From a virus (Duplodnaviria > Caudoviricetes): DNA of 55,195 bases. How positions within the stretch are numbered: the stretch's first letter is position 1; the number at the start of each line of letters is the position of its first letter. This document shows, piece by piece, positions 25,664 through 45,442 of this stretch. Made by a program: the position numbers and the translations under genes. The DNA lies in the IMG/VR virus record IMGVR_UViG_3300017735_000009, positions 1 through 55,195 of that record; one strand, 5' to 3'. The notes under the pieces are model-generated. The model searched no databases and was not told the origin of the DNA. It saw only the letters and a program-made list of their open reading frames with translations.

Positions 25664-25705
25664 AAGTAATCCATCGATAAAGCATGTTAGTTGCCTTATT
25701 ACAAC

Positions 25706-25714
25706 TATTTATCA
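25706..25714 (-). promoter_or_regulatory. late promoter-like TGATAAATA
   Basis: Upstream of the collagen fibre gene. Confidence 0.6.
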
Positions 25715-25725
25715 CTTTAACTGGA

Positions 25726-26139
25726 TTAACTGGAAAGGATGATTCTGTTAACTTGACCGTATGAGGAATCGTAAGTTACACCGTCACCTACGTGGTCTCG
25801 GTCTACTTTTGTGCGAATATAAGTGTAGTTACCTTGGAATGTGTATGCTTCACTGGCATTGCGTGGATCGTTTGCGTTAAACTGTATGTAACCGTCTCTG
25901 TTGAACTCTTTGCCTGTAGTTGATGCAGGATATATGTCAAACCAATCTGTGTCAGTAGGCTCTAATGATAGTGTGCCTTGTATACGAAAACGACCTACAT
26001 ATTGACTGTAGATAACTTGAATGGTGTGCAATCCGTCAGTGTAGCCGTAGTAACTATCGCCTTTAACTGCTTCGCTAATTGCTGTCATAGTTGTGCCTGT
26101 GGCTTCTTGTAATACTACACTTCTTCTGTTTATAGGCAT
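25726..26139 (-). CDS. putative virion structural protein
   Basis: Start reassigned to MPINRR (GGAG RBS); KGDSYYGYTDGLHT...IQGTL...P...DWF; late motif at 26162-26170. Confidence 0.7.
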   Translation of the reverse strand: MPINRRSVVLQEATGTTMTAISEAVKGDSYYGYTDGLHTIQVIYSQYVGRFRIQGTLSLEPTDTDWFDIYPASTTGKEFNRDGYIQFNANDPRNASEAYTFQGNYTYIRTKVDRDHVGDGVTYDSSYGQVNRIILSS

Positions 26140-26160
26140 ATGGTCTCCAACTCTATGCAA

Positions 26161-26913
26161 CTATTTATCAATTAAATACAGTTTATGATAAGTTATCTCC
26201 ACCTTAGGAAATTGTAACATTAAGAATGGCATCAAGTCATTTACAGATTCTTCATTGTCTATGAATATCTTTGCTTGCCAACGGGCACTGCTAAATCTAT
26301 AATCACCTTCTACATTGTCTTTTAAATAATCACGTATATCTGAATGTACACCTCGCAAACCTGTGATATTATTGCGTGTGTATTTCCATCTAACCCAAAA
26401 TGTATATGCATAGTCATACTTGCCCCACCATGGCTTATTCTTTACACACACGTCAGCAGTGCTTTCCCACAGATGATTTCTGTGTTGGTCGGTTACTGGA
26501 CCTGCAATTTCTAATATAGCATTAGGATAATTTTTATGTATCCATTCTAATGTGATGTTGTCTTTATAATACATCGAAATAGCATGTTTGCCATTGAATG
26601 TTGTATTTAATGTTCTGTTGTGATATTTGCTAACATCTACTACTGCCTCTTCGGGCCTGTCTGCTATTACACCCAACTGCACAAAGTCATGTACCATTTG
26701 AGGTAATCTCCAATACCACATCAACGTAAAAGATCTTCCGGAATTTTCGTCTGGTAACTCAGGCTTGGTTATGAAAGGCAGTTCGCCTACATCAAGTTTA
26801 ACTCTGTAAGGGTAATTACCGTAATAAACACGTTCACTTGGTATAACCCTATAGTCATTAACAAATGGCTTAGATATAATATCAGTATCATTCTTTGAAA
26901 TAGAAATCTTCAT
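26161..26913 (-). CDS. hypothetical protein
   Basis: 250-aa ORF. Confidence 0.7.
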   Translation of the reverse strand: MKISISKNDTDIISKPFVNDYRVIPSERVYYGNYPYRVKLDVGELPFITKPELPDENSGRSFTLMWYWRLPQMVHDFVQLGVIADRPEEAVVDVSKYHNRTLNTTFNGKHAISMYYKDNITLEWIHKNYPNAILEIAGPVTDQHRNHLWESTADVCVKNKPWWGKYDYAYTFWVRWKYTRNNITGLRGVHSDIRDYLKDNVEGDYRFSSARWQAKIFIDNEESVNDLMPFLMLQFPKVEITYHKLYLIDK

Positions 26914-29074
26914 TGTAATCCACCGTTATAGTTCCTGATTGCAAGTCTTCAAATAATATCTTTTTACTTAAAGGCTTCTTAATCTTTTCTTCGAATACTC
27001 TCTTCAAAGGTCTTGCACCCATACTCGGTTCGTATCCTTGCTCTGCTAATTGCTTACGTGCGGCTGATAATAATCTAATCTTGATTCTACTGTTGTTGCT
27101 GGACAGTAACTTGTTTGTTTCTATAACAAGCCTATCAACAATCATTAGCATCTGACCTGGCTCTAATTTATTAAATTGCACTGTTGCATCAAGTCTATTT
27201 CTAAACTCTGGTGTAAAGAAACTTTTAACTGCTTTGTTTGTTTCACCTTTACGTACTTGATCACCAAATCCAATTTTAAGTTCTTCGCCTTTACTTGCAC
27301 CAAGGTTAGAAGTCATAAGCAATACAACATTACTAAAGTCAACAACCTTGCCCTGACTGCCTGTGACTCTACCATCATCCATAACTTGCAATAAGATTTG
27401 CAATACTTCTGGTGCGGCTTTCTCAACCTCATCAAGTAATAATACACAATTAGGATTGTCTTCTACTTCAGCAACTAATTGTCCTTGCCCCATCTTACCT
27501 TCTGCGTGTCCAACATAACCAGGAGGAGCACCAATCAGTTTGGCCACACTGTGACGTTCTTGATATTCACTCATATCAAACTTAACAAGTTTTGCTTGAA
27601 GTTCTTTTGCAAGTGCTCTTGCTGTTTCTGTTTTACCAGTACCAGTTGGACCTACAAACAAGAAACTGCCTATGGGCTTGTGGGGTTCACGCAATCCGGA
27701 CTTGCTAACAAGAATTGCTTCCACAATTTTATCAACAGCCTCGTCTTGTCCATAAACAGTTTCTTTGATTCTGATATCTAAATCTTTGTATGCATTTGAA
27801 CTTTCTGTGTCAATTACATCTTCGCCTATTTTACTAATCTTGCTGATTACTTTTACCATGTCCTTAATAGTTACTTCAGTGTCTTCTCTGAGTTTAACAG
27901 CGGCTCCGGCGGCATCAACTACATCAAGTGCTTTGTCTGGGAAATGTTTTGTTTTTACATATCTATCTGTGAGTTCAACACTTCTATCTAATAATTTGCT
28001 GTCGTATATTACACCGTGAAATTCTTCGTAGTAATGTTTTAATCCTTGTACAATTTCTTTTGTGCTTTCAAGATCTGTTTCGTTAACATCAAGCCTTGCA
28101 AACCTACGCATTAGAGCGCCATCCTTTTCAAAACTGTCTGCAAATTCATCTGGTGTTGTTGCACCAATTGTTAATAATCTACCTCTGCCTAACACAGGCT
28201 TTAGTAGGTTAGCGGCATCAACATTACCACCACCAGCACTGCCGGCACCCATAATCATGTGTATCTCATCAATGAACAATATAGCATCGTCATCTGCTTC
28301 GAGGCACTGTAGCACACCTTTAATACGTTCTTCGAAGTCACCCCTGTATCTTGTGCCTGCAAGTAATTGTCCAAGATCTAAACTGTAAACTACTTTGTTT
28401 CTCAGTGTCTTAGGTACTTCACCATCAACAATCTTTTTAGCAAGTCCTTCTGCAATAGCAGTTTTACCTGTGCCTGGCTCGCCTACAAGTACACAATTAT
28501 TCTTTTTACGTCTTGCAAGAATATGTACAAGATCACTTACTTCTTCATGCCTACCGATCAGAGGATCAATACGTTTCTTTCCTGCTTCATCGTTGAGGTT
28601 AACTGTGAACTCTTCTAATAATTCTCTGTTCTCATTTCTTGATACTTCTTTTTGTTGCTCGTCTCTGAGAACTTCTTTGGTTAGACCATTTAGCAAACAG
28701 TAATAAGATGCATGTGAGTCTTCCTCATACAAAATACTTATAAGTAAGTCTGCTGGTGCAAATGCATCACGTTTATTAAACACAATTGATGCTAACCCAC
28801 GTTGAAATACTTCCTCAAGTTTTTTTGTTTTTTGCGGAGAACCTTTAGAGCCATTCATACACACTAATCCATTCTCTTGATCATCGAGATAGTGCTGTAT
28901 GTCAGTCTTAATTTGCTCGTGGTCAATGCCTTGTCTATCGCAATGTCCTACAATCTCATGATCATCTAATAAACAAATGGTTAAATGTTCAAGTGTTACA
29001 TACTCATGATTTTGCACATTGGCTTTTTCAATTGCATTGTGTAATATTACTTCTACTGGATTTTTACTGCTCAT
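26888..29074 (-). CDS. clpA: ATP-dependent Clp protease ATP-binding subunit
   Basis: Clp-N (HEYVTLEHL), two AAA+ modules (GEPGTGKT, GPTGTGKT), IGF ClpP-docking loop, no ClpB middle domain. Confidence 0.92.
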   Translation of the reverse strand: MSSKNPVEVILHNAIEKANVQNHEYVTLEHLTICLLDDHEIVGHCDRQGIDHEQIKTDIQHYLDDQENGLVCMNGSKGSPQKTKKLEEVFQRGLASIVFNKRDAFAPADLLISILYEEDSHASYYCLLNGLTKEVLRDEQQKEVSRNENRELLEEFTVNLNDEAGKKRIDPLIGRHEEVSDLVHILARRKKNNCVLVGEPGTGKTAIAEGLAKKIVDGEVPKTLRNKVVYSLDLGQLLAGTRYRGDFEERIKGVLQCLEADDDAILFIDEIHMIMGAGSAGGGNVDAANLLKPVLGRGRLLTIGATTPDEFADSFEKDGALMRRFARLDVNETDLESTKEIVQGLKHYYEEFHGVIYDSKLLDRSVELTDRYVKTKHFPDKALDVVDAAGAAVKLREDTEVTIKDMVKVISKISKIGEDVIDTESSNAYKDLDIRIKETVYGQDEAVDKIVEAILVSKSGLREPHKPIGSFLFVGPTGTGKTETARALAKELQAKLVKFDMSEYQERHSVAKLIGAPPGYVGHAEGKMGQGQLVAEVEDNPNCVLLLDEVEKAAPEVLQILLQVMDDGRVTGSQGKVVDFSNVVLLMTSNLGASKGEELKIGFGDQVRKGETNKAVKSFFTPEFRNRLDATVQFNKLEPGQMLMIVDRLVIETNKLLSSNNSRIKIRLLSAARKQLAEQGYEPSMGARPLKRVFEEKIKKPLSKKILFEDLQSGTITVDYNEDFYFKE

Positions 29075-29875
29075 TTATCTATCTATTTCCCTGTTTATTT
29101 TATTTAACATTTCAAGGTGGCCTGAGTCCGAAATTCGAGGTGTAAAAACCTCAATTACTGCATACAAATTACCATATAAATTTCGACCATATACTGGCAT
29201 ACCCCAATTACTCAATCTCAATCTCGAACCTTCTTGTGTACCTGCCGGTACTTTAATTCTCACTTTCTTTCCACTAACATGATCTACTTGTACTTCTGTG
29301 CCAATCATTGCTTCTATGGCGTTTATGCGTACTGCCTGTAATATGTTATCACCGTCTATTGCTGTGCCCGGATCAGGTCTCACATGTAATCTCACTATGA
29401 GATCACCTGCTGGCATATCTTTGTAACGACTGTGTCCTTTGCCTGCTATCCTTACTTTGGTTCCATTCCTCATGCCTGGCTGTATTTGTATTATCTCTCT
29501 GGCATACCCTACGTCAACAATGACTTCTTTGCCCTTGTATGCTGTTTCCATGTTAATTGGTAAATCTACAAGTGCATCTGGATTTTGTCTTGCTCTTCTG
29601 TATTGATTACCAAATTGACTAAACATGTCACCAAATGGACTGCCCTCGCCAAATGGATTAAAACCTGGGTCTTGTGGACTGTCAGTACCAAATTGATCAA
29701 AGAACTCTTTCTTTTGCGGGTCACTTAATACATCGTATGCTTCTTGTACTCGCTTGAACTGTTCAGCATCACCGCCTTTGTCAGGGTGGTGTTTACTTGC
29801 AAGTTTACGATAGGCTTTTTTAATATCTTGGGGGCTGGCGCCACGTGCCAATCCAAGAGTGTCATAATGATCCAT
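29075..29875 (-). CDS. DnaJ/CbpA-type co-chaperone
   Basis: J domain with HPD and a DnaJ C-terminal domain; no zinc finger. Confidence 0.92.
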
Positions 29876-29881
29876 TGATAT

Positions 29882-29910
29882 ATTATAGCACAGTTATTTT
29901 AATTGGTCAA
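29882..29910 (-). promoter_or_regulatory. sigma70-type promoter TTGACC-N17-TATAAT, near-leaderless
   Basis: The -10 box ends 6 nt before the DnaJ ATG. Confidence 0.55.
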
Positions 29911-31111
29911 GACTTATAATGTATTTTTCTGGAGCAGTTTGCATGATGGTAAGATCTTTGCCATTGTTGTTACGGTATGATATTGCCTGCCAAAAGAAGT
30001 CATGTAAATTCATTACACGGTCACCAGTACTTCCTAAAACATATTCATCTTTATCAAGTAACCATTGTTTGGTCTTTTTATAATTTGCAAGTAGTAACTG
30101 TTTATTGTGTGTAACCATTTCTCTAACTTCATCTTGGTTTGCACTGATGTTATTGTAGAAGTGAGATACCACATATTGTATAGACTCGTAGTCATGATGT
30201 GCTGATCTTGTATTATCTGATGCAGGGCACTGGCTCATAGGATAAAATTTATCTAAAGTAATTCCATAGAATTTTTCAAAGGTTTGGTATCCAAGTTTGT
30301 TTAGATGCTCATGTAAACCATATTCACCTACTATAACAAATGGATGGCTGTTCATGATAGGCCTATAAGTTTTTTCAGAAATCATAGGACCGTCTTGATA
30401 CAATCTTGGTTGTACAGGTTCCCATGGATTTGGAACGTTGAAGCCAGTGTTAGATTCTGCTATCAAAGACCAGCCTGTGTTTTCGTATATGCGAGTTTGG
30501 TATGGATATCCTACGTAATGTTGCATTCCGTTAGCACAAATATCAGTCATCTCAATATCCATGGTTCTATTTAGACTCAAGAAATATTCTACTGTACCGC
30601 CTATTGTATCAATGCAGTCTTGTTGACTTTTAATAACATTTGCAGATATTGTTGGGTCACTTGGTTCTAATACTTTTAACGAATAATCTAACTTATGTAA
30701 TTGGTTTGCTTCATCCAAGTACTTCAATATAGCCAACCTTGTTGGTTTTGTTGTTTTGCCAGGTTGGTATAATCCTTTGTCAATGCAATTCCATTGTTGA
30801 CTTTCTGTTGCCACACCATTTTCGTGATATGCGCCTGCTTGATATTCAAAATATTCTACTGGAAATCCATGAGGTGTAATATCACTTGTGGAATTACCAT
30901 ACCATGCTATATCATATCCTGCACTCTTGCATTCAATAACTTGTTGCACGATTATATCTTTATCATTCAATAGTTCGTTTACTGTGTGAAGGAAAAAACA
31001 ATTAGGTGTAGGGCTGATAGATATATAATGTAATATTTGTGGGTTATGTTCTATCTGTTGTAACAGGGTTTCTCCCTGCGGACTCGCAGTGAGTTTTGTG
31101 CGAACGATCAT
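29894..31111 (-). CDS. hypothetical protein, possibly glycosyltransferase-like
   Basis: SLIAES...ISEKTYRPIMNSHPFVIVG...LGYQTF motif, recurrent in large phages. Confidence 0.6.
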   Translation of the reverse strand: MIVRTKLTASPQGETLLQQIEHNPQILHYISISPTPNCFFLHTVNELLNDKDIIVQQVIECKSAGYDIAWYGNSTSDITPHGFPVEYFEYQAGAYHENGVATESQQWNCIDKGLYQPGKTTKPTRLAILKYLDEANQLHKLDYSLKVLEPSDPTISANVIKSQQDCIDTIGGTVEYFLSLNRTMDIEMTDICANGMQHYVGYPYQTRIYENTGWSLIAESNTGFNVPNPWEPVQPRLYQDGPMISEKTYRPIMNSHPFVIVGEYGLHEHLNKLGYQTFEKFYGITLDKFYPMSQCPASDNTRSAHHDYESIQYVVSHFYNNISANQDEVREMVTHNKQLLLANYKKTKQWLLDKDEYVLGSTGDRVMNLHDFFWQAISYRNNNGKDLTIMQTAPEKYIISLDQLK

Positions 31112-31114
31112 TTA

Positions 31115-31828
31115 TTAATCCTTAGATGGTAATCCAGGTATAAGTTTACTAAGACTGAATCCACCTTGTTCTTTAACAGGTGCTTCAGGCTGTTTGTTAT
31201 CTGCTTTTACTTCTTCTACTTGTTCTACTTGTGCTTCTTCGTTCTTATTAATCCAATCTTCTTTGTCATCGTTGGATTCGGCACCTGTTGCTTCACGGTA
31301 GTAAAGTATAATTTCTTTTTGTTGTTTGATATAACGTTTGATGTCTTGTAGGTTAGCGGCCATGTTCTCATAACCTTTTGGGGTCATGCCCATTAACACA
31401 AAGTCTCCGCCTAATGTCTTTTCAACTTCAGCAATTTTTTGCTCCAAGTTACCACATACCATTATGACTTCGCCGTTTTTGTCTTTGAGTTGCTCTCTGA
31501 GAATACGTTGACCATCTACGTCTCTGACTGCTCTTGTGCTTTCTGTACCATCTTCCTTGGTATACTTTTCGCTCATATACTTTTCGGTTGTATAATACTT
31601 AGGTTTCTTGTTCTCACCAGTTGCTGGCTTACAAGGTGTATTAGTTAATACTTTCCATTCAACATTTTGCATTTGAATTTCTTGTGGTAATGGTGGTTGA
31701 TATATTTCTAATTGTACTGTTTCAGTGATTACTTTAACAGGTGGTAGTGGCTGATAGCCTCCTCCCATACTGCTACAACCAGTTAGAAATAATAAACCTG
31801 CTACTGTAAATAATCCTTTCTTAGTCAT
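31115..31828 (-). CDS. outer-membrane lipoprotein, o-spanin-like
   Basis: Lipobox FLTGC, Pro-rich segment, GYENMAANLQDIKRYI; follows an i-spanin-like gene. Confidence 0.7.
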   Translation of the reverse strand: MTKKGLFTVAGLLFLTGCSSMGGGYQPLPPVKVITETVQLEIYQPPLPQEIQMQNVEWKVLTNTPCKPATGENKKPKYYTTEKYMSEKYTKEDGTESTRAVRDVDGQRILREQLKDKNGEVIMVCGNLEQKIAEVEKTLGGDFVLMGMTPKGYENMAANLQDIKRYIKQQKEIILYYREATGAESNDDKEDWINKNEEAQVEQVEEVKADNKQPEAPVKEQGGFSLSKLIPGLPSKD

Positions 31829-32261
31829 TTGGTTCACCTGTTTGTGTGTCTTGTGCGTCTAATTCTCTACTGTCTTCTTCAACACTGCGAAATACTTTCT
31901 CAGTGGCTTTGTTTGCTCTAAGTTCTATGCTTCCTGGTCTTGCTCTTGCAAGTTTAGTGAAGTCATGATCTTTAAATATTCTAAGGTAACTGTCACGCTC
32001 TGCGTTCAGCTCGTTATTACGATTAGTTAAGTTGCCCATAGCCAGTGCCTGTGCTTTACTTTTTTCTTCGAGGCCTCTGATGGTGTCTTCTTGAATTTGC
32101 TGTGCTGATTGCAATGCAACGTTTTGCTGAACTGCTTGATCTAAATTCATCTGTAATTGATCAATGCGTTTGTCTTTTTCGTTTACTATAAATTTGTGTG
32201 CGCCAAATCCTAACAAGGCTACAAATATAATTATGGGAAGTGCTTTTATGAATCCGAGCAT
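31821..32261 (-). CDS. i-spanin-like protein
   Basis: N-terminal TM, long coiled coil, LARARPG.IE..AN.AT..VF. Confidence 0.7.
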   Translation of the reverse strand: MLGFIKALPIIIFVALLGFGAHKFIVNEKDKRIDQLQMNLDQAVQQNVALQSAQQIQEDTIRGLEEKSKAQALAMGNLTNRNNELNAERDSYLRIFKDHDFTKLARARPGSIELRANKATEKVFRSVEEDSRELDAQDTQTGEPND

Positions 32262-33025
32262 AGTTTAGTTACCAGTATGTTATCAGCGCCTTCTCTAAAG
32301 ATCACAATGTAATTGTCTATAGGTATTGCTCTCATCTCTCCTAACATACTGTTAAACTGTCTGAGTGTGCTATCTAAAGGCTTAATTGCACTTTCTGAAA
32401 TGCCAATGTCTGCCATTGTGTCGTTAGCGGAACCAAACCCAACCACTTCTAAACGTGCTGTGTTGTTCCTTGCGTCTGTCATTGTTATAATATTTTCTGC
32501 AAGTTCTACATTCATTGATGATTGTCTTGCAAATTCTAATATTGCAGATTCAAACTCTTGTGTACGTTCTGCTTCAGCGGCCTCTTCTGCCTCTGCATTT
32601 GCTATCCATTCATCTTTAGTCATATAGTTCTCTGGGTCAGTGATTAACCAAGTGTTAATGTCGTCATTTAAGATGCCGTGAAAGTCATCTGTTAAATGAG
32701 TTTGCCCTGTCCATTTCATGTTGCCTGCAATGTTATTTAAATCAGTGCAGATTTCTTTAATTGTTTCTAATGATTTCTCATTACGATCTATCTCAACAAA
32801 CACCATATAGTATCCATCTGGATTAGGGTTTGGAGATACTTCAACATCTCTGATTTTTGCGATGCCTGTGTTTAAAAATTCGTATACATCTTGTCCAACC
32901 TTTTCATCTACAGTGTTGAAACCCACAACAATAACATCCTTGCTTTCACCTGTCTTAGGTTCAAACGTATCGATGACTACTTTGCCAAGCATTGTGTCTT
33001 TTAATTCACCTACCTTGATACCCAT
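32246..33025 (-). CDS. conserved jumbo-phage hypothetical protein
   Basis: ID.FEPKTG...DVIVVGF...DVEVSP.P..DG.Y.VFVEI.R. Confidence 0.75.
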   Translation of the reverse strand: MGIKVGELKDTMLGKVVIDTFEPKTGESKDVIVVGFNTVDEKVGQDVYEFLNTGIAKIRDVEVSPNPNPDGYYMVFVEIDRNEKSLETIKEICTDLNNIAGNMKWTGQTHLTDDFHGILNDDINTWLITDPENYMTKDEWIANAEAEEAAEAERTQEFESAILEFARQSSMNVELAENIITMTDARNNTARLEVVGFGSANDTMADIGISESAIKPLDSTLRQFNSMLGEMRAIPIDNYIVIFREGADNILVTKLCSDS

Positions 33026-33582
33026 TATATTGTTGGTCCTGTTCCAATATCGCCCAAGTCAGTTTGTTGCATGTCTTGTTCTTGTTCGATTTGAGTTTCT
33101 GCATTCATTGATTCAAGATCAACATAGTTGTTTTCATCTTGTTCAAGTTGGTCTGTGTTGAACTCGTCAACATACTTACGTGGCAGTTTAATTTCAACTA
33201 CCCAAACAGGTTCTGATTTAGTTCTTGCTCTGGTCTTTGTTGTGCCATTTGGTCTTTGCTCTACAGTTAAGTCTCCAAACTCTTTGACTTTAACTGGACG
33301 TATTAGTGTATCTTCTGTGAACTTTACCATACATTCACGTGCAAACAATCTTTTAGCACCATTAGGATCAGGCATGTCCGCTTTTGGGTACATCAACTTG
33401 ATCGAAATGTAATGTCTTTGTAACAAAGGACCTTCAAGCAATTCACCTTTGATCCAGTTTTTGTATGCATATAGGTTTGTGTCATCAAGGAACTTTTCAA
33501 ATTCCAATAACATATCTAAGAGACTGTTTGTCTCTGAAACTTTTCTTACGTGATCGTTAAGCATTTTAACGGCTATAGTCAT
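33025..33582 (-). CDS. conserved jumbo-phage hypothetical protein
   Basis: Y.YKNW..GEL.EGP...MPDP.GAKRL; late motif at 33605-33613. Confidence 0.75.
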   Translation of the reverse strand: MTIAVKMLNDHVRKVSETNSLLDMLLEFEKFLDDTNLYAYKNWIKGELLEGPLLQRHYISIKLMYPKADMPDPNGAKRLFARECMVKFTEDTLIRPVKVKEFGDLTVEQRPNGTTKTRARTKSEPVWVVEIKLPRKYVDEFNTDQLEQDENNYVDLESMNAETQIEQEQDMQQTDLGDIGTGPTI

Positions 33583-33614
33583 AACAATAAACTCCTGTTA
33601 CAACTATTTATCAA

Positions 33615-34223
33615 TTATTGTTCAATAAACTCTGGGTTATGAATATAACATGTATGCTTTTTCTTTTCATACGTGACCACTAATTGCTTTGATGTGTCTG
33701 CTTTGTTAAACACATGGCCTACTTTATATGAATCTTGTGGCTTGACCTGTACAGGATAGTCACCAAGCCAACCATCTATGCCTTGGCTTTCTTCTTCTGC
33801 TGTTGAGAATCTATACTCCATGTCAAAGTATTTTGCCGCGGCCTTGATAGCAGATGTCTCACCACCCATACCAAAGTGTGTTTTGTTAAAGATAACTTCT
33901 TCAACATATGATCTACATAGTTCTTTGTCTAACCAAGGAATACGCATATCATTTACTGCTTTGTCAAACAGTTTGTCTGCCGCCCATTCTATACCTTCCC
34001 AGCCTTGCTGTTCAATATAAAACTGCTCCCAATTTTCGATAGTATCAGGCTGTCCTGTTTCCATGAATGCTAACCATGTCTCTTTCATAGAGCCTACTTT
34101 GGTTGCTTTAAAACACTGTGCATTCTGACCTGCAATGTTTAGCAACTGTGTTGCATAACGAGGCCATTCACGTCTGCTACGTGAGTCATGTTCTTTGTAA
34201 AAACGTGCTGTTAACTTGATCAT
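33615..34223 (-). CDS. MjaI-family type II restriction endonuclease-like protein
   Basis: PRYATQLLNIAGQNAQ...VGSM.E, KT..G, YRFSTAEEESQGIDGWLGDYPVQVKP (PD-(D/E)xK-like core with QxK). Start reassigned to MIKL (ATGA overlap). Confidence 0.75.
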   Translation of the reverse strand: MIKLTARFYKEHDSRSRREWPRYATQLLNIAGQNAQCFKATKVGSMKETWLAFMETGQPDTIENWEQFYIEQQGWEGIEWAADKLFDKAVNDMRIPWLDKELCRSYVEEVIFNKTHFGMGGETSAIKAAAKYFDMEYRFSTAEEESQGIDGWLGDYPVQVKPQDSYKVGHVFNKADTSKQLVVTYEKKKHTCYIHNPEFIEQ

Positions 34224-34408
34224 ATACCAAATACCACATGTAATATCAGTGTGAAGATAAACAGTAATCCCCAATTTGCTATCAGGGTGTTAAAAGACCA
34301 ATACTTCCTTTTTGCATTATATCCTATTAGTCCTAATGCTAAACTAAAACCATAGTATATTGACATAAAGAATAGTATTAATACACCTATCCACCATATT
34401 GTTAACAT
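34220..34408 (-). CDS. small 2-TM membrane protein
   Basis: 62 aa, GGAGG RBS, coupled to the nuclease gene. Confidence 0.65.
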   Translation of the reverse strand: MLTIWWIGVLILFFMSIYYGFSLALGLIGYNAKRKYWSFNTLIANWGLLFIFTLILHVVFGI

Positions 34409-34436
34409 ATAAACCTCCTACGCTTATATAAAAAAG

Positions 34437-34483
34437 TAGTAGCAACCCTTAGCAATCTTTAGCAATTTAACGTTTTGCTACTA
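34437..34483. repeat. three TAGCAA direct repeats at 10-bp period plus an inverted copy
   Basis: TAGCAA at 34440, 34450 and 34460; TAGTAGCAA/TTGCTACTA inverted pair. Confidence 0.7.
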
Positions 34484-34492
34484 TTTACATAT

Positions 34493-34522
34493 ATTATAGC
34501 AGATCTACAGGGTTTGTCAACC
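34493..34522 (-). promoter_or_regulatory. sigma70-type promoter GGTTGACA-N16-TATAAT
   Basis: Hexamers at 34515-34520 and 34493-34498. Confidence 0.75.
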
Positions 34523-34553
34523 GGAAAACGGGCCTCCATGGCCCTGATAAATG

Positions 34554-34922
34554 CTAACATCCGCCGCCAAATGTAAGTCCATCTGGGGTGCATTCTACTT
34601 CTTCAGTAGGCTGTTCCTCTTCAACCAAACATGCTTCGTAACTGTAACCTGAGGGTGGTGCAACACCTCCCCATGCCCAGCATAGTTCATCACCAGTTAC
34701 TGGCTCAGGAACATAGTCACGTTTATTCCACTCTTTTGCATTGAAAAAACGAACAGCATTTTTCATACTGCCAGTGGCAGTGTATACATTATCTTTGTTG
34801 CTAATGTAAATGCTTTCTTTGTTTTTGAGAGTGTAGGTTGATCCATCTTCGTAGTTTATTACTGTCTGAGCAGATACCGAAGTGGACAAGAGTATCATAC
34901 CCAACATTGTTGCTATTTTCAT
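34554..34922 (-). CDS. secreted hypothetical protein
   Basis: Signal peptide, four Cys in the C-terminal half; TATAAATA motif upstream (~34971). Confidence 0.7.
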   Translation of the reverse strand: MKIATMLGMILLSTSVSAQTVINYEDGSTYTLKNKESIYISNKDNVYTATGSMKNAVRFFNAKEWNKRDYVPEPVTGDELCWAWGGVAPPSGYSYEACLVEEEQPTEEVECTPDGLTFGGGC

Positions 34923-35013
34923 AACTTCTCCTTGTTGGACAGTACATGATACAACTGTATACTGAAATAATATTTATAGGCTATATTGTATTGCTGTTAG
35001 ATATTTTGGTCGT

Positions 35014-35037
35014 AAAAAAAGCACCACTTGGATGCTT
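35014..35037 (-). terminator. probable intrinsic terminator
   Basis: AAGCATCCA-AG-TGGTGCTT followed by a T run, after the porin-like gene. Confidence 0.45.
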
Positions 35038-35055
35038 CCTTTACGTTTCTAAAAT

Positions 35056-35664
35056 TTAGAAACCTATTGAGTAGCCAACATAGAAGTTGTCAACGTCTTG
35101 TATCTTATCTAAAAGATCTTCGTCGTTGTTATCGTGGTCGATAAAACCAACTTTTACTTTGCCACCCGCTAAGTCAAATGACTTAGATACTTCCAAAAAG
35201 GAACCTGCATTGTCCCAGTCGCCATAAGCAACATCAACAATTTTTAATGCACTTGAATCTACTTTGTAGAAATCACCTGCATCATCAAGTCCTTTAGAAT
35301 AGTATACGCCAAATAGGTCGAAATCCGCTCTCACGTTTAATTCTTCCCATCCATCGCTGTCAATACCTTGGAAGCCACGGTCAACGTATGCAACGTTTAA
35401 ATCAACGCCACCTAAGTCAAAACCATAACCAACCAACATAGTTGTCATTAAATCTGAATTTTCATTCAGTGACATAACACTTGCTCCAGCAAAGATACCA
35501 TTGTCAAGACTTAAATTGCCTTGAGCAGAGTATCCAAAACCGTCACTCATACTAATGCCTCTGAAAATATTATCAGATGCGATGCCAACTTTACCACTAA
35601 TATCAGCGGCGAAAGTTGGAGTCGATAGCATAATTGCTATCATTGTTGTAAATATATATTTCAT
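35056..35664 (-). CDS. TorF-like (TIGR02001-type) outer-membrane beta-barrel protein
   Basis: Signal peptide, ISG.VGIASD.IFRGIS.S, C-terminal YVGYSIGF beta signal. Confidence 0.75.
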   Translation of the reverse strand: MKYIFTTMIAIMLSTPTFAADISGKVGIASDNIFRGISMSDGFGYSAQGNLSLDNGIFAGASVMSLNENSDLMTTMLVGYGFDLGGVDLNVAYVDRGFQGIDSDGWEELNVRADFDLFGVYYSKGLDDAGDFYKVDSSALKIVDVAYGDWDNAGSFLEVSKSFDLAGGKVKVGFIDHDNNDEDLLDKIQDVDNFYVGYSIGF

Positions 35665-35743
35665 ATATTACTCCTTTCTTTTTATTATAAACTACGGAAA
35701 TTACAGACAGGTAAACCCATCTATAATTCCTATAGTTAACTAA

Positions 35744-35773
35744 AGTATACTATAATTTGATTATTTGTCAACC
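35744..35773 (-). promoter_or_regulatory. sigma70-type promoter GGTTGACA-N16-TATACT
   Basis: Hexamers at 35766-35771 and 35744-35749. Confidence 0.6.
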
Positions 35774-35807
35774 AAAATACAGCCTACTTTATATAGTACA
35801 AAAGTAT

Positions 35808-36044
35808 CTATTTGCTTTTGCTATCATCTCCTAAAAGGTGAATGATAATAATCGCCACTAACAAACCGACTAAGCCGCCTTGTCCAAGTGTTGATACTAA
35901 TGCTGTGATGTTACCAACAACGTCTCCGATCATAGCATTAGAACCAAATAATAGTCCTGCTAAGATGCCTAAACCTAAAAGGTTTACAAACACTGCTGAT
36001 AAGCCTTTGACAAAGTCATTGGCTTTTTTCATTACTATATCCAT
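35808..36044 (-). CDS. small 2-TM membrane protein
   Basis: LLFG...DVVGNI..LV..LG..GLVGL. Confidence 0.75.
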   Translation of the reverse strand: MDIVMKKANDFVKGLSAVFVNLLGLGILAGLLFGSNAMIGDVVGNITALVSTLGQGGLVGLLVAIIIIHLLGDDSKSK

Positions 36045-36345
36045 ATGTTACTCCTATATAGATATGACACAAGATAATTCTTATGTCGCATATATTTAAG
36101 TTGACTTCGGTACCCGTTAACACAGGTTAGAAGTTAACTAAACACTTTATTATAACATAATCTACATAAATAGCAACCATTTATAATATTAACTGCCATT
36201 AAAATGGGCCCATTCACAGTGCTAAATAATATTACATGATGATTAACAACCATTCAAAAAGTTGTAGTAAACAACACATACAAGTTATGGACCGTGACGG
36301 CAATGCCCTACACGGTTTTTTTATGGCTTTACAAAGGAGTATAAC

Positions 36346-37098
36346 ATGTCCAGAAAAGCAAGAAAGCAAAAGTGTAATAAGTATCGTAAACAACAAAACG
36401 GAGATAACTATTTGAGAGTAATACAGGGTGGCGCCATAGAACGCCAAAGAAATACTAAAGTAAGTATAACACCAAGGAACTTTAATCAAGACGAGTTACT
36501 TGGCTTATTAGAAGATCGAAATATCAATATAGTGTTTGCAGTAGGTCCAGCAGGAACGGGTAAAACACTAATCTCAACACTCGCAGGAATCAAAGCATTA
36601 AAGGAAAATGACATAGATAAATTTGTTGTCACACGTCCTGCTGTGAGCGTAGATGAGCAACACGGTTTCTTACCAGGCACGTTACAGGAAAAGATGGCGC
36701 CATGGACGAGACCTATCTTTGATGTGTTCGAGGAGTATTATTCCCCTGAGCAAATAGAATATATGTTGAACGATAATAAAGTAGAGATAGCACCTCTGGC
36801 TTATATGCGTGGACGTACATTTAAAAACAGTTTCATTATTGCAGACGAAATGCAGAATGCAACAGACAGTCAAATGAAAATGCTGTTAACAAGAATAGGT
36901 GACAATAGTAAAATTGTTGTTACTGGCGACTTGGCACAGCATGACAGAGGTTTCGAGAGCAACGGATTAAAGTTGTTCATTGAAAAATTAATGAGATCAA
37001 AGAGTGATCGTATTAAACTGGTACAGTTTAATCAAGGAGATATAGCAAGGCATCCAGTGGTCGATGAAGTGCTGAATATCTACAACGACGAAATATAA
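36346..37098 (+). CDS. phoH: PhoH-family ATPase
   Basis: GPAGTGKT, TRPAV, GFLPG, PLAYMRGRTF, DEMQN and TGD..Q.D motifs. Confidence 0.95.
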   Translation: MSRKARKQKCNKYRKQQNGDNYLRVIQGGAIERQRNTKVSITPRNFNQDELLGLLEDRNINIVFAVGPAGTGKTLISTLAGIKALKENDIDKFVVTRPAVSVDEQHGFLPGTLQEKMAPWTRPIFDVFEEYYSPEQIEYMLNDNKVEIAPLAYMRGRTFKNSFIIADEMQNATDSQMKMLLTRIGDNSKIVVTGDLAQHDRGFESNGLKLFIEKLMRSKSDRIKLVQFNQGDIARHPVVDEVLNIYNDEI

Positions 37099-38606
37099 TC
37101 TTGTTTTAGTTTTATGTATCGAGTAACATGATCGTTGCTCGATGCATAGAATTTATCACTGTAGTAGAATTTTTTACCTTGCTTCAGTACTTGTTCTTTA
37201 AACTGTTGCTTGCCTTCTACACTCAACAAATCATTCAAACCTAAGGCTCTACGACTCACAGCCTCCCAACTATCTAACATTGTGATACCTTTCTTGAACA
37301 CGTTAGATGACAGCCTTCTTGAATATATTGTTGCCTGTTTGAAATTCATAGTACCGTGTTCCCAATCGAGTATATGTTCATTACTGCCAGGCTTTTTAGG
37401 TTTTATAGTTATACCAAACTTCTCAGGGTTTTTGTTTATCTCTGCATAGTTTAATTCATTATCCTCTACTGCATACACACCCAGTGGTTGTATAATAGCA
37501 GAGTCTAACAGTTTTCTTTCAGTTAGTTCTTCCCACACATCTAATACATGTTCAATGGGTTCTGGTGGTAGGCCAACTATGTAGCCACTGCATATCCACC
37601 AATGAGGGTACTTCTCACGTAATTCTTCCAAGTAGTTCAAACTACTCACACGTTCTATACCCTTGCGTATGCGTTTACTTGCTTCTCTGTGCAACGTTTC
37701 TATGCCAAAGTAATGTCCATGGAAGCCACAGCGGTCAAGCATCTCTGCTTGGTGAGGTCTTGCTTTAAGTAAATCAAATCGTGTGTATCCAATTATCTTT
37801 GGCTGATAGTCTAATTGTGTAACAGCACTCAGCAAGTTTTCTATCTTAACATCGTCCTCGTTGAATGTGTCATCCACACAACTAAAATGCTGTATGCCAT
37901 ATTTGTTTTTTGCTGTTTCAAAATAATGCTGTAAATCTTTTGGGTCAGCATCGTGTGTGTTTTTAGCATTGCGGAATTCAAAGTTACAAAATGTACAATT
38001 AAACTTACAACCTAATCTTGTTTCAAAACTCACTATATCATTTTCTGTTAGACAGTAATCATCATACAGTATTGGCACTATGGGTTTCTCGACTATGTCT
38101 GTACCAGTCCTGTGATACACTGTGCAATCGCCTTTCATAGTAATAGTATTCAACAAAGGTTCATGTGGAGTATCGAGCCATCGTGTAAACAAGTGTAGAC
38201 TTCTGCCTCTGAACACTGCATCAGGCACTATGTCACAGTTTGGGTCGAGAACAGCAATAGGTCCTCCTGTGAAGTATTTACTGTCGGGGAAGTGTTGTTT
38301 AAATTTATTAACAAAGTCGTACAACTTGTTGCCTTTGCTTATTAAGAATTTATTAAACAATGATGTGCTTAACAACAAAGGGTTTGTAACGTTCTGCGAT
38401 TCGCACCATGTCACAATGTTTTCTAACAGTGTGTCGTTATCCCAGTCATAAAAATAGTCAAACAGTGTTGCAGAGTAATCTCTTTTTACTATTTCATGAT
38501 GGATTGCCATTGGTGCTAATGGCCTAATTACTTGAGCTCTCTCACCACTCATATTAGAGGAGTTGGTGCAGTCGATTATAATCGCACCGTCAAGATATGG
38601 ATTCAT
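37080..38606 (-). CDS. radical SAM protein (B12-binding / class B-like architecture)
   Basis: ETRLGCKFNCTFC, DDTFNE, FGIET and IVGLP, with a long N-terminal domain. Confidence 0.85.
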   Translation of the reverse strand: MNPYLDGAIIIDCTNSSNMSGERAQVIRPLAPMAIHHEIVKRDYSATLFDYFYDWDNDTLLENIVTWCESQNVTNPLLLSTSLFNKFLISKGNKLYDFVNKFKQHFPDSKYFTGGPIAVLDPNCDIVPDAVFRGRSLHLFTRWLDTPHEPLLNTITMKGDCTVYHRTGTDIVEKPIVPILYDDYCLTENDIVSFETRLGCKFNCTFCNFEFRNAKNTHDADPKDLQHYFETAKNKYGIQHFSCVDDTFNEDDVKIENLLSAVTQLDYQPKIIGYTRFDLLKARPHQAEMLDRCGFHGHYFGIETLHREASKRIRKGIERVSSLNYLEELREKYPHWWICSGYIVGLPPEPIEHVLDVWEELTERKLLDSAIIQPLGVYAVEDNELNYAEINKNPEKFGITIKPKKPGSNEHILDWEHGTMNFKQATIYSRRLSSNVFKKGITMLDSWEAVSRRALGLNDLLSVEGKQQFKEQVLKQGKKFYYSDKFYASSNDHVTRYIKLKQDYISSL

Positions 38607-38929
38607 TATAATATTTTGCGTATTTGGTAATCAAATGGCTCAACAGTTTTAATCTCAAATGGCTTACCAAATATATCTTTACCCACTATGTGCGTGGCTG
38701 TTTTCTTGCTGATATCTTTTAATTGGAACTCTTTGCGATTACGTTTTACTGTTTTAAGGCCTTCCGCATTAATAGTTGTTTCAGTGTGAAACCAAACAAC
38801 TACTTCATACTCTTCTTTCCACAAGCTCAACCACCATTGCCACAGTCGTTTGTACCATACTAATTTGACTACGAGTACTTCCGTATCCTGTATAACTGTT
38901 TTCTTTGTTGTGTTTGTTGGCTTCTTCAT
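38606..38929 (-). CDS. hypothetical protein
   Basis: 107-aa ORF between the radical SAM paralogues. Confidence 0.7.
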   Translation of the reverse strand: MKKPTNTTKKTVIQDTEVLVVKLVWYKRLWQWWLSLWKEEYEVVVWFHTETTINAEGLKTVKRNRKEFQLKDISKKTATHIVGKDIFGKPFEIKTVEPFDYQIRKIL

Positions 38930-38937
38930 AATACTAT

Positions 38938-40380
38938 TTATCCAATTAAGTAGGCACTTTTCTGCTTAATGTACTTTTGAACTAATTTAGTACGTCTTAC
39001 GTTGTGTGCTGGTAAAGCCATGTTATATTCAGCATGACTAAGTCCTGGTAAGCAACTTTTAATACTTTGGAACTCGTGACCAGTGTATCTGCTTTGTAAG
39101 TTCTTATCATAGTAATCATCGAGCCAACTTGTAATACGGCCTGCCTCGGTAGACGATGTCCAATCATTAGCCCATGATTGAGAACTGTAACCTAACTCCG
39201 GCCAATTCCTGTCTGTGCCTATAACTTCGTATCCAAACTTTTTAGGATTTAAATCAATGTCACTCATTATCTCAGTGTTATCAAGACCTTGATAAAGCCT
39301 TAATGTATTACATCCTGCACTGGTTAACAGTTGTTCGTTAACAACTTTTTCAGCATAGTATCTAATATCTTTCTCACAGTCGCCAGTTAAGCCTATAATA
39401 AAATTACCATATGTAAATATGTCTGGGTGCTCATCACGAATCTTTGCCAGTGTATCCATGTTCTTTTCTGGTTTACCACCCTTACGTATTAACTTGGTTA
39501 CGTTGGTAGAAAAACTTTCTATGCCAAAGAACATGCTTTTAATATTAGCACGTTTTATTAGTTCCATTTGATGCGGCTGTCCACCAAGTACATCTAATCT
39601 AATAAATCCCATTAGGTCAGGCTCAAATGTTAAATCCTCACATACATCACCTAATAGTTCTAACTTATCGTCAATCTCATTCATGGTGTCGTCTGCAAGA
39701 TAAAAATGCTTGATGCCAAACTTATCATATGCTGTTTGCATAGTTTCTGTTAACAATTCTTTGTCTACGAATACACTGTTCTTATTACCTCGATAGTCGT
39801 AGCCACAAAAACTGCAATTAAACTTACAGCCAAGTGCCATCTCTAATGACATTGTTTCTCTGGGACTCCAAAAGTCACCGTCTTTAGGAACAACACTGAC
39901 AGCAGTTTCACGTATGATTTTGTCTGGGTTTTTGTATGTTAGTGGGTTAGTTGAATGAACGTATTGATCTAAGTCTTTACCTTCAAGCCAATCTGTGAAT
40001 ATGTTGGTACATCTACCCATGAATGCTAAATCAACCCAACTGCTATCACCTACAGTAACACGATACCCACCTAACATTACTTTAACAGGGCAGTGTTTTT
40101 TTATTTTAACAACAAGTTCTTTGAATGCTTCTGTGCTACTACCATCGATACTGCCACTTAGACTAATCCAACACGTTGGATCATCACCAAAGAAACTCAC
40201 AATACTTTCTATGAGTAGTTCTTCAGGCCAATCTTTCCAATAGTCAATAGCCTCAGCATCTACACCGTGGTTGTTGGCTATGTTTACAATATGGTGAACA
40301 CCTGCTGGCCTATTATTATTTAATAATGTACCTACACGTGTAGGCTTGGCACCTAAATCTGACATTACAATTAATTTCAT
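38938..40380 (-). CDS. radical SAM protein (B12-binding / class B-like architecture)
   Basis: EMALGCKFNCSFC, DDTMNE, FFGIES and FIIGL. Confidence 0.85.
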   Translation of the reverse strand: MKLIVMSDLGAKPTRVGTLLNNNRPAGVHHIVNIANNHGVDAEAIDYWKDWPEELLIESIVSFFGDDPTCWISLSGSIDGSSTEAFKELVVKIKKHCPVKVMLGGYRVTVGDSSWVDLAFMGRCTNIFTDWLEGKDLDQYVHSTNPLTYKNPDKIIRETAVSVVPKDGDFWSPRETMSLEMALGCKFNCSFCGYDYRGNKNSVFVDKELLTETMQTAYDKFGIKHFYLADDTMNEIDDKLELLGDVCEDLTFEPDLMGFIRLDVLGGQPHQMELIKRANIKSMFFGIESFSTNVTKLIRKGGKPEKNMDTLAKIRDEHPDIFTYGNFIIGLTGDCEKDIRYYAEKVVNEQLLTSAGCNTLRLYQGLDNTEIMSDIDLNPKKFGYEVIGTDRNWPELGYSSQSWANDWTSSTEAGRITSWLDDYYDKNLQSRYTGHEFQSIKSCLPGLSHAEYNMALPAHNVRRTKLVQKYIKQKSAYLIG

Positions 40381-40391
40381 ACTTGTATTTA

Positions 40392-41321
40392 TTATCCTTG
40401 TGCATTCATCTGTAACTCAATTAGGGTAGCACTAAGATTAATTTCAGGATCAGCACAACTAACACTTTTTACTAAACCATCTCTAATAATAACCACTGCT
40501 TGGTCTTGTTGTAAGTCTGTTGTTCCCCACAGTCCAATATTGCGATACATAAATCTGTACACATCTTCGTATTCTTCTGGTCTTGCTTGGGTAACAATTA
40601 GTTCACGTGCTTCTTTAAAGTTGCCTTGCTTAAATAATTCTACTACACTCAGCATCCATTCAGCAGTGCCTTTTTGATCTCCCACTTCGGGTCTGTTTAG
40701 TACACCGTCTTTTACATTTTGTTGAACAAGGTTAATACACTTACGCAAATCTGGATAACTTGCTTGTACATAAGTATCAAGTGTTTCTATATCAATGCTA
40801 ACACCCTCATCTATGCATATGGTTGCAACACGACTTGTGAACTCATTGATATCTAACTTCTCAATATGAAAGCCTTGACACCTGCTTTGTATTGCTGGAA
40901 TAATCATATGGACATGATTACAAGTGAGAATGAATCTACATGTTGATGCGTATGCTTCCATTACTCCACGCATAGCCGCTTGACCGTCTTTGGTCACATA
41001 GTCAGCCTCATCGAGTATGATGTATTTCAATTCACCGAACGGTAACGTGCTACTAAACTTTGTTATCTTGTGCCTAATAACGTCGATACCGTTCTCACTA
41101 CTGGCATTAATCATCATGATGTCCATGGGACTTACATTTAATTCTGCTAACAGTAGTTTTGCCAAAGTGGTCTTACCAGTTCCAGGCGCACCACTAAACA
41201 ACAAGTGAGGCAATGCACCCTCTGATATCCAACTCTGTACCTGCTCTTTTTGTTTCTGATCTCTAAAAACGTAGCCGTCTACGTTGTTGGGCCTATATTT
41301 TTCTGTCCATAATTCTTTCAT
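40392..41321 (-). CDS. clamp loader ATPase subunit (RFC / gp44-like)
   Basis: LWTEKYRP, GAPGTGKT, INAS, LDEAD and SRC motifs. Confidence 0.93.
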   Translation of the reverse strand: MKELWTEKYRPNNVDGYVFRDQKQKEQVQSWISEGALPHLLFSGAPGTGKTTLAKLLLAELNVSPMDIMMINASSENGIDVIRHKITKFSSTLPFGELKYIILDEADYVTKDGQAAMRGVMEAYASTCRFILTCNHVHMIIPAIQSRCQGFHIEKLDINEFTSRVATICIDEGVSIDIETLDTYVQASYPDLRKCINLVQQNVKDGVLNRPEVGDQKGTAEWMLSVVELFKQGNFKEARELIVTQARPEEYEDVYRFMYRNIGLWGTTDLQQDQAVVIIRDGLVKSVSCADPEINLSATLIELQMNAQG

Positions 41322-41354
41322 GTGTATACCTGTGTGTGTTCAAAATGTCTTAGC

Positions 41355-41384
41355 ATTATACATTAAAAATAATGTTTTGTCAAC
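41355..41384 (-). promoter_or_regulatory. sigma70-type promoter GTTGACA-N17-TATAAT
   Basis: Hexamers at 41378-41383 and 41355-41360. Confidence 0.7.
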
Positions 41385-42357
41385 GATAAGTTAATGACTT
41401 TATAAATTCTTTTGTAGATTTTTCCCAGCAATGCTTTAATGCCTGCGTTTCGCATAACGTCCTGTTATAATTCAAAACAATCTCTACTGCTTCGTGTAAA
41501 TTTTCTTTGGTGCATCCTGTGATGCCTGGCTCAATGATATCTATTGGTCCTGTTACTGGATATGCCGCAACTGGTGTACCACACGCCATACTTTCTAACA
41601 TAACGTTACCAAACGTATCCGACTTGCTTGGAAATACAAATACGTCTGCAGATGCATACCAAACTGCTAACTGGCTTTTTGTTTGCTCCCCAGTAAAAAT
41701 AACGTCTGGGTATTTGCTTTTTAGTTCTTGCAAGTACGGTCCATCACCGCACATTATCTTTGTTGCCCTATCGCCAAATTGTGTAGTGTCTAAACTACAA
41801 AAATCATCCAAACCTTTTTCTTTGATAGCTCTGCTTACACATAACAATATAGGTCTACCCACTGTGGTAAGAGCATTTCTTTTACTTGGATTAAATATTT
41901 CTTGATCAACACCTCTTGACCAAACACGTATGTTCTTAAACTTGTTATCGTGTAACTCTTGTTTACCGCTGTCCGTTGGAACTAATATTGCTGTGCTGAA
42001 CCAATGTAACAATCTAAATATTTTAAAAGTCCAGGTAGTAGGTATATAATATTTTTGCTTTATGTACTCAGGCCAATTGGTATGGAATCCTGTGGTAAAT
42101 GGTATGCGATTAAATACACAATGTTTTAAAAACTTAAATCCTATTTTGCTTTCTGGTGTTGCTATGTAAATAGCATTAGCCCAAGCACACCACTTGCGTT
42201 CTTCTCCTGCTATGTATTTTGAGATTACTTGTACTGAAAATCCTTTATTCTCTAATTCGTTGACAGTGGTTTTTAATGCTGTAACAACTCCGTTAGTGTG
42301 TTCCCAATAATCAGTAACTATTAGAATATGGGTTCCTTTGACGTGATTAATATTCAA
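41380..42357 (-). CDS. glycosyltransferase family 4 (GT-B)
   Basis: NGVV, RGVD, FVFPSKSDTFGNVMLESMACGTPVAA. Confidence 0.9.
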   Translation of the reverse strand: MNINHVKGTHILIVTDYWEHTNGVVTALKTTVNELENKGFSVQVISKYIAGEERKWCAWANAIYIATPESKIGFKFLKHCVFNRIPFTTGFHTNWPEYIKQKYYIPTTWTFKIFRLLHWFSTAILVPTDSGKQELHDNKFKNIRVWSRGVDQEIFNPSKRNALTTVGRPILLCVSRAIKEKGLDDFCSLDTTQFGDRATKIMCGDGPYLQELKSKYPDVIFTGEQTKSQLAVWYASADVFVFPSKSDTFGNVMLESMACGTPVAAYPVTGPIDIIEPGITGCTKENLHEAVEIVLNYNRTLCETQALKHCWEKSTKEFIKSLTYR

Positions 42358-42360
42358 GTG

Positions 42361-43164: not shown

Positions 43165-43165
43165 A

Positions 43166-45437: not shown

Positions 45438-45442
45438 GGTTT

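Follow-up and report, generated by a model that had tools for sequence, protein, structure and literature searches.

The window analyzed here is a stretch of 55,195 bases that constitutes the whole of the linear IMG/VR virus record IMGVR_UViG_3300017735_000009. It carries the gene of a putative solitary restriction nuclease of the MjaI family and does not contain a single copy of CTAG, the presumed target of this enzyme. The open reading frame (ORF) of the nuclease extends from 33615 to 34274 on the minus strand if a TTG start is assumed, and the ATG at 34223 gives a protein of 202 amino acids (aa). An initial annotation had assigned the protein to the MjaI family by its motifs, and a profile search agreed: Pfam RE_MjaI (PF09568) was matched with an E-value of 3.4e-29 and 102.2 bits, against a curated cut-off of 22.7 bits, over profile positions 1-161 of 164. 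With a match above the cut-off over most of the domain, the protein belongs to the family. As a control, the PF09568 profile was run on 14 genomes, among which it matched only Methanocaldococcus jannaschii. MjaI itself (MJ0984) is described as an active CTAG-specific enzyme (PMC2615612), and PF09568 is listed in the PD-(D/E)XK superfamily (PMC3424549). The family is small, comprising 225 of 1.84 billion representative clusters at E ≤ 1e-3, and the window protein falls in PHROG 14722, which has no known function.

The residues expected of an active nuclease were present. In an alignment of 59 family members G44, W65, K161 and Y185 were invariant and N29, A81, G118, E145, I149 and D150 were conserved in at least 90% of the sequences; all of them are kept in the window protein. 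E145, D150 and K161, which provide the acidic residues and the lysine of a PD-(D/E)XK core, were also retained in 15 clade members. The AlphaFold2 (AF2) model had a predicted local distance difference test score (pLDDT) of 92.7, and its C-terminal domain modestly resembled PD-(D/E)XK nucleases in a structure comparison. The best match was I-Ssp6803I (Z 6.0, root mean square deviation 2.8, 78 residues aligned), and Hjc, VRR-NUC and lambda exonuclease ranked below it. Foldseek gave no match for this model at E ≤ 1e-3, and a sequence search of solved structures matched neither the MjaI-like nuclease nor the 183-aa protein of record G002 described below. When the nuclease was modeled as a homodimer, the interface score ipSAE was 0.50, vs. 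0.00 for the best of three controls, three runs agreed in at least 76% of the contacts, and the pLDDT of the partner was at least 83. The predicted interface is symmetric and comprises residues 22-34 and 92-97. Of 30 proteins solved as pairs, 20 attained the ipSAE mark, compared with 1 of 23 solved as single chains; these counts hold roughly, since our own alignment was used. Among clade members, 12 pairs were tried for the ratio of nonsynonymous to synonymous substitution rates (dN/dS), and the six unsaturated pairs gave values of 0.03-0.13. To judge from the sequences, the gene is under purifying selection, and these values together with the promoters described below lend indirect support to an active nuclease.

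Not one CTAG was counted on either strand of the window, which agrees with the reading by eye in the initial annotation. The expected number was 127.3 under a Markov model, 161.5 (sd 11.8) in 100 dinucleotide shuffles, and 188.4 from base composition; the GC content of 38.8% and the last value fit the earlier estimates of about 38% and 150-200 sites. The density in relatives, 3.0 per kb, would give ∼168 sites in a sequence of this length. Other palindromes were plentiful, as had been noted (GATC 152, GTAC 217, and CATG 194). When six large gene-bearing records were compared, CTAG alone among the 4-mers was absent or depleted more than 10-fold in every one of them, and no 5-mer free of CTAG behaved in this way. 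At 72 places where the polymerase genes of nine relatives have CTAG, the letters of the window differed throughout and the dipeptide was kept in 34, the aligned places not being independent of each other.

No methyltransferase was found among the 40 ORFs of the window in a Pfam scan, and none adjoins the nuclease gene, as the initial annotation had stated. Six-frame searches of the window gave no match to PF01555, PF00145, PF02086 or PF02384, and the five largest gene-bearing records (460 kb) were likewise without a match to these four methylase families. A Type II restriction-modification (R-M) system encodes a cognate methyltransferase with the nuclease; because none was found in this record, for which CheckV gives a completeness of 13%, the window nuclease is placed in the RE_MjaI family and not in an R-M system. 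With no methylase found and no site, the record has the features of a genome that carries a solitary endonuclease.

The association between the gene and the missing word recurred in other viral sequences. A scan of IMG/VR with the close clade of the nuclease gave 16 loci, 15 of which had no CTAG. When 16 other gene-bearing records were read whole, 14 lacked a PF01555 match. Twelve of these 14 had no CTAG, among them records of 160, 115, 73, and 68 kb, and in the remaining two (G035 and G038) CTAG was confined to one contig end; together, the 14 records contained 22 CTAG vs. 1,671 expected in 716,812 bases. In record G046, where a PF01555 methylase gene immediately follows the nuclease, seven CTAG remain. 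The scan was extended to metagenome contigs from JGI and ENA, where 80 of 141 nuclease relatives were kept; the wide alignments A1 and A3 were too diverse for locus scans, and the smaller A2 and A4 were used instead. The 54 close-clade metagenome loci without a methylase-like ORF had 10 CTAG vs. 1,158 expected in 500,684 bases; 51 had none, and all 10 sites lay within 617 bases of a locus end. Three close-clade loci with an adjacent methylase had 0, 0, and 2 CTAG. In the distant clade, an adjacent methylase-like ORF was present in 20 of 23 loci and CTAG was kept (85 vs. 222 expected). Bacterial loci of the MjaI type had a PF01555-type methylase within 300 nt of the nuclease in 65 of 80 cases. 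A branch of the nuclease tree separates the phage clade from the bacterial sequences (Shimodaira-Hasegawa-like approximate likelihood ratio test, 91).

Relatives without the gene retain the word. None of 80 IMG/VR relatives identified by their polymerase (57-80% identity) was free of CTAG, and they contained 3,169 sites vs. 3,530 expected in 1.04 Mb; RE_MjaI was not found in the 31 largest of these records, one of which is 91% complete. Two records, G002 (97 kb) and G003 (56 kb), align collinearly with the window over its full length at ∼65-86% nucleotide identity and lack the nuclease cassette. They contain 251 (288 expected) and 122 (157 expected) CTAG, respectively, or 0.78-0.87 of the expectation. 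A general rarity of CTAG, which the initial annotation had raised as a caveat, was rejected as the cause of the absence, because the relatives carry the word near its expected density. As a search with the DNA polymerase found no match in the 16 gene-bearing records, kinship was read from ClpP instead. The ClpP tree places the window, with support of 96/96, among the CTAG-bearing records G002, G003, G011, and G012, and the CTAG-free records G042 and G043 fall in a separate clade, so that the CTAG-free state requires at least two changes. On this single-gene tree, a lineage effect was likewise rejected as the cause.

The nuclease is the second gene of a two-gene operon behind a consensus sigma-70 promoter (Table 1), an arrangement that the initial annotation had recognized correctly. 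Downstream of the promoter follow an AGGAGG ribosome site, a 62-aa ORF for a predicted membrane protein, and the nuclease gene, and the stop of the 62-aa ORF overlaps the start of the nuclease (ATGA). The 62-aa ORF had no Pfam match and was not found beside the nuclease in other phages. In 12 other records (G001, G033-G040, G042, G044, and G045), promoter-like sites that match the consensus at 10-12 of 12 positions precede the homologous gene by 23-45 nt. The blastn alignments of the window to the collinear records G002 and G003 end at 33614-33615 and restart at 35071, which argues for an exchange of cassettes at a single slot. In G011 the genes flanking this slot stand 227 nt apart, and the neighborhood of the nuclease gene differs between phages. 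The cassette overlaps a variable island (34554-36044) with the 122-aa secreted-type ORF, a 202-aa porin-like ORF, and a 78-aa membrane ORF; the porin-like ORF has a weak Gcw_chp match and a conserved counterpart in G002 and G003. Contigs from RNA libraries crossed the nuclease in two of four runs (X15 at 32131-34282 and X16 at 33730-34474), and those over 35146-36126 were several-fold deeper than their neighbors in all four libraries; such contigs can show neither transcription nor its strand or level and were not used as evidence, and the non-coverage in X17 and X18 is uninformative.

In G002, the same slot is occupied by a 67-aa membrane ORF and a 183-aa ORF, whose stop and start overlap. 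The 183-aa ORF matched no Pfam family, and its product has more than 367 unnamed homologues with an invariant ED...DxK motif. The AF2 model of this protein (pLDDT 92.2) matched R.SwaI (Foldseek E 2.2e-6, TM-score 0.69-0.73), followed by HincII and EcoRV (PDB 5tgx, 5tgq, 1tw8, and 2ge5). The MjaI-like and SwaI-like families showed no relation by hhalign (probability 1.5%), and the small membrane ORFs upstream of the two nucleases showed no detectable homology to each other (E 18). TTTAAA is the core of the SwaI site and is itself the DraI site. It is absent from G002 (44-82 expected) and occurs twice in G003, both times within 285 bases of the contig end, and 42 times in the window. Among polymerase-control loci of at least 12 kb, TTTAAA was present in 42 of 46, and the four without it were those of the G002/G003 cluster. 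SwaI-like relatives were found in 33 IMG/VR records, 23 without and 10 with a PF01555 match; the locus had no TTTAAA in 22 of the 23 vs. 2 of the 10. Three records with strong full-length methylases contained 29, 13, and 9 TTTAAA, about the expected count, and six with weak partial methylase matches, three of them interrupted by stops, contained 0-4. The genomes with interrupted matches (G051, G072, and G073) keep 2-4 TTTAAA, and these matches may be decaying methylase genes. They lie beside the SwaI-like nuclease or in the same short record, adjacency having been worked out for G051 only. The 303,564-base genome G078, which is 89% complete and carries a SwaI-like gene, had no TTTAAA (96-199 expected), and no credible methylase was found in it. 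At the level of sequence, the SwaI-like family thus repeats the link between gene, missing word, and methylase of the MjaI family.

Table 1. Positions of the features discussed in the text; those without a record or locus name refer to the window.
Feature	Position	Strand	Basis or remark
Solitary RE_MjaI-family (PD-(D/E)XK) nuclease gene, 202 aa, presumed target CTAG	33615..34223	-	Pfam PF09568
CTAG-free genome fragment, the proposed protected "self"	1..55195	.	0 CTAG vs. 127-188 expected
Consensus sigma-70 promoter, extended -10 (TTGACA, 16 nt, TG, TATAAT)	34493..34520	-	12/12 match
ORF for a predicted 62-aa membrane protein, promoter-proximal in the two-gene operon	34220..34408	-
Cassette (nuclease, 62-aa ORF, promoter, 122-aa secreted-type ORF)	33616..35070	.	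blastn vs. G002/G003
67-aa membrane ORF and 183-aa ORF in the G002 slot	L323:8354-9108 = G002:C1:28354-29108		Matches window slot 33616-35070
Weak partial PF01555 matches with in-frame stops	G051:C1:22339-23469; G072:C1:4962-6092; G073:C1:11883-12875
RE_MjaI/methylase region of G047	G047:C1:14569-16914 and 26900-27838
Contig-end sites	G038:C1:1-4347; G035:C1:1-610; L236:194-617; L271:93-105; L278:4-83; G003:C1:186-285 (TTTAAA)
Auxiliary jumbo-phage-type genes	26888-29875, 36346-40380, 41380-44567, 49019-53466

The DNA polymerase and the ClpA-like ATPase of the window were 40-47% identical to their counterparts in jumbo phages (Phosso, Atu_ph07, a 349-kb Vibrio phage, Rak2-like phages, and PA5oct), and by this kinship the window is a fragment of a jumbo-phage genome. 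Its sequence is present in many seawater metagenome runs, 16 of which contain at least half of the words sampled from it, and a search of a phage collection for near-identical DNA gave no match. The auxiliary genes comprise, besides the ClpA-like ATPase, those for DnaJ, ClpP, PhoH, NAD synthase, a protein like inosine monophosphate dehydrogenase or guanosine monophosphate reductase, two radical-SAM proteins, and two 2-oxoglutarate-Fe(II) oxygenases. A group-1 glycosyltransferase gene adjoins a UDP-glucose dehydrogenase-like gene.

The explanation that we favor, with a probability of roughly 0.75, is that these phages carry interchangeable solitary restriction nucleases and protect themselves by purging the recognition site. 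Catalytic activity, CTAG specificity, early timing, the targets (host or rival DNA), and the order of events are parts of this explanation that we infer. The window nuclease would be a methylase-less, Type IIP-like endonuclease of the MjaI family, probably a homodimer that cuts the palindrome CTAG. Its gene would be part of a small mobile cassette, equipped with a strong sigma-70 promoter, that occupies a variable slot in the genome of a marine jumbo phage. Since CTAG is missing from its own DNA, this phage would need no methylase, and the missing word would be what marks self. The gene would probably be transcribed by host RNA polymerase soon after infection, and the enzyme would then cut any CTAG-bearing DNA in the cell, be it the host chromosome, co-infecting phages or mobile elements; sibling phages retain CTAG. 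A likely route leads from a phage-borne R-M pair through the purge of the site to the decay and loss of the methylase. Graded states were found, in which an intact methylase goes with sites that are kept, methylase remnants go with few sites, and the lack of a methylase goes with the lack of sites, and these suggest the order of R-M pair, purge, and methylase loss. Loss of the methylase would also stop it from protecting host or rival DNA. The initial annotation had proposed a methylase-free distinction of self from non-self; our results support this proposal, and none of the computational tests that it had named as able to refute it did so.

A more far-reaching version is that the slot is hot-swappable for methylase-free nucleases, with specificity for CTAG in the window, for TTTAAA in its nearest relatives and possibly for other words behind the purges of GCWGC and GTAC, each matched by genome-wide erasure of the word, and that sibling phages are the main targets. 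We regard this version as tentative, at somewhat less than even odds. If it is true, the cassettes would serve phages to exclude one another and would make the sequences of otherwise collinear phages diverge rapidly across the whole genome. The graded states of methylase and sites support a path that was taken repeatedly.

Several observations weigh against the explanation by solitary nucleases and self-purging. Outside its close clade, the window nuclease is just 23-32% identical to the wider family, and for this reason its specificity for CTAG is deduced from the missing word. The window represents ∼13% of a genome and the best record of the MjaI clade is 45% complete, so a methylase or a DNA modification may be encoded elsewhere; moreover, the locus scans detected methylases by PF01555-type queries only. 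G047, a complete 45.7-kb phage (GC 51%) with a 31%-identical RE_MjaI homologue, has no CTAG (32-178 expected) despite two PF01555 methylases, and bacteria with a complete MjaI-type pair are ∼10-fold depleted in the word (120 vs. 1,209 expected), 38 of the 80 bacterial loci having none. A zero count in a short locus is therefore not diagnostic of the lack of a methylase. At least four metagenome loci duplicate IMG/VR records and several records share identical nucleases, which leaves about 6-7 independent lineages. CTAG does occur in five of the methylase-less records or loci (G038 19, G035 3, L236 6, L271 2, and L278 2), which would mean self-cutting genomes if the sites were real. All these sites sit at one contig end. 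The first 4,756 bases of G038 (1-4756) have no counterpart in sister records that are 98.6% identical from 4757 onward, and two of the G035 sites fall where the identity to G039 drops; the contig ends are probably assembly chimeras with co-occurring, site-bearing relatives. The order of events also counts on this side, as the sites might have been lost before the nuclease was acquired.

Further points of this kind come from other purged words. GCWGC (GCAGC and GCTGC) is absent from the window (46-71 expected) and from many polymerase relatives without the MjaI gene. It is also absent from G033-G040 and normal in G001, G041-G047, G011, and G012, and its purge is not tied to the MjaI gene. AGCT (29 in the window, 135-188 expected) and CGCG (1, 20-76 expected) are depleted across the lineage; AGCT is missing from many relatives, with or without the nuclease, and normal in G041-G045. 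G078 has no GTAC (575-1,108 expected), for which no matched nuclease was identified. This genome (G078:C1:1-303564; L365-L380) is also without AGATCT, CACGTG, and AGCGCT, which suggests several independent word purges. Words that are purged without an identified matching nuclease, though no search aimed at one was made for GCWGC, AGCT, CGCG or GTAC, indicate that host restriction can purge words in these phages.

These purges bear most directly on the possibility that CTAG was lost to escape an R-M system of the host and that the nuclease was acquired later, as a harmless passenger with little or no role in shaping the genome. Complete site avoidance is known in phages as a means against restriction, and MjaI-type R-M systems are common in bacteria (at least 568 matches). 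The losses of GCWGC, of GTAC, AGATCT, and CACGTG in G078, and of AGCT in relatives took place without an identified phage nuclease to match and fit such a history. However, the search for CTAG-free relatives that lack the gene found none among 80, the match of gene and word holds for two unrelated nuclease families, and members that bear a methylase keep their sites. Strong purifying selection and the conserved catalytic residues also speak against a neutral passenger. Avoidance driven by the host is thus unlikely as the whole explanation, and could still hold for a first step in which the sites were lost before the nuclease arrived. Somewhat less probable still is that protection is hidden in the remaining genome, as a methylase or base hypermodification, and that the nuclease is one half of a dispersed R-M system. 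A sampled fraction of 13% leaves room for such genes, separated R-M systems are described in prokaryotes (PMC3488263), and the radical-SAM proteins, oxygenases, and glycosyltransferase of the window could be read in the same direction. Chemically protected DNA, however, would have no reason to lose every CTAG, the four methylase families were unmatched in the 460 kb of large gene-bearing records, and the 89%-complete genome of the sister family is without a credible methylase.

It is also conceivable, though very improbable, that the protein does not cut CTAG at all and is an inactive relic, a DNA-binding regulator or an endonuclease of the homing type with a long target, its association with the missing word being coincidental or ancestral. 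The best structural match, modest as it is at Z 6.0, is a homing enzyme, and the gene stands free, occurs sporadically, and moves from one context to another. The loss of a 4-bp palindrome throughout the genome and the symmetric dimer predicted by modeling would nevertheless suit a Type IIP enzyme better. The full-length Pfam match is to a family whose type member cuts CTAG, no word but CTAG is missing from every gene-bearing genome in the comparison, and a single origin of the CTAG-free state is incompatible with the ClpP tree. The low dN/dS speaks against this possibility as well.

With a nuclease of its own, no methylase found and every CTAG erased, the phage probably tells self from foreign DNA by the missing word. 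If the enzymes are active, viruses would possess a form of self/non-self recognition that is free of modification, with host shut-off or exclusion between competing phages in the sea as plausible uses, and the nucleases would reshape genomes throughout at synonymous positions. The missing word would also provide a rule by which restriction enzymes could be found, and their specificity predicted, from metagenomes. The 183-aa SwaI-like family, with hundreds of unnamed members and no Pfam model, would be an immediate candidate.

Restriction enzymes are textbook partners of methylases; carried alone, such an enzyme should kill its own bearer, except where the genome has no copy of the site. A literature search, with supplementary files outside its scope, found no paper on solitary restriction nucleases of phages with matching site-free genomes. 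The closest relatives in family terms are the Type II R-M systems of the R.MjaI/MthZI type (PF09568, CTAG), which have the family and the E...D...(S/Q)xK core in common with the window nuclease and, presumably, the target; their bacterial genes have a nearby PF01555-type methylase (65 of 80 loci), whereas none was found for the window nuclease. In cyanophage S-RIM32, unlike in the window, a PF01555-type methylase gene overlaps the nuclease gene. The blunt-cutting Type IIP enzymes R.SwaI, HincII, and EcoRV share their fold, as judged from the model, with the 183-aa protein of G002 and G003, which differs from them in having no sequence-level match to any solved structure or Pfam family and no methylase match in 23 of 33 records. 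In phage T4, EndoII and EndoIV degrade host DNA, and hydroxymethylcytosine protects the DNA of the phage. There, too, the nuclease spares phage DNA, but the discrimination is made by base modification, whereas in the window it would be made purely by sequence content. R-M systems are described as weapons of viruses, directed by chloroviruses against host DNA and by marseilleviruses against co-infecting viruses (PMC7253447). The non-self target and the early expression of the nuclease that this source reports resemble the role proposed here, but these viruses are protected by a cognate methylase and the window phage would be protected by the absence of the site. The nearest parallel is PacI of Pseudomonas alcaligenes (PMC3488263), the single bacterial example of a solitary endonuclease given in the part of the source drawn on here, where the lack of a methylase is tolerated because the carrier genome lacks the site, as would be the case in the window. 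PacI is bacterial, whereas the window comes from a virus of several hundred kb that has been stripped of a 4-bp word expected ∼3 times per kb. The PacI site consists of 8 bp, contains A and T only and is rare by composition in a GC-rich genome. Unlike the case of PacI, the phage pattern recurs in several lineages and in a second enzyme family.

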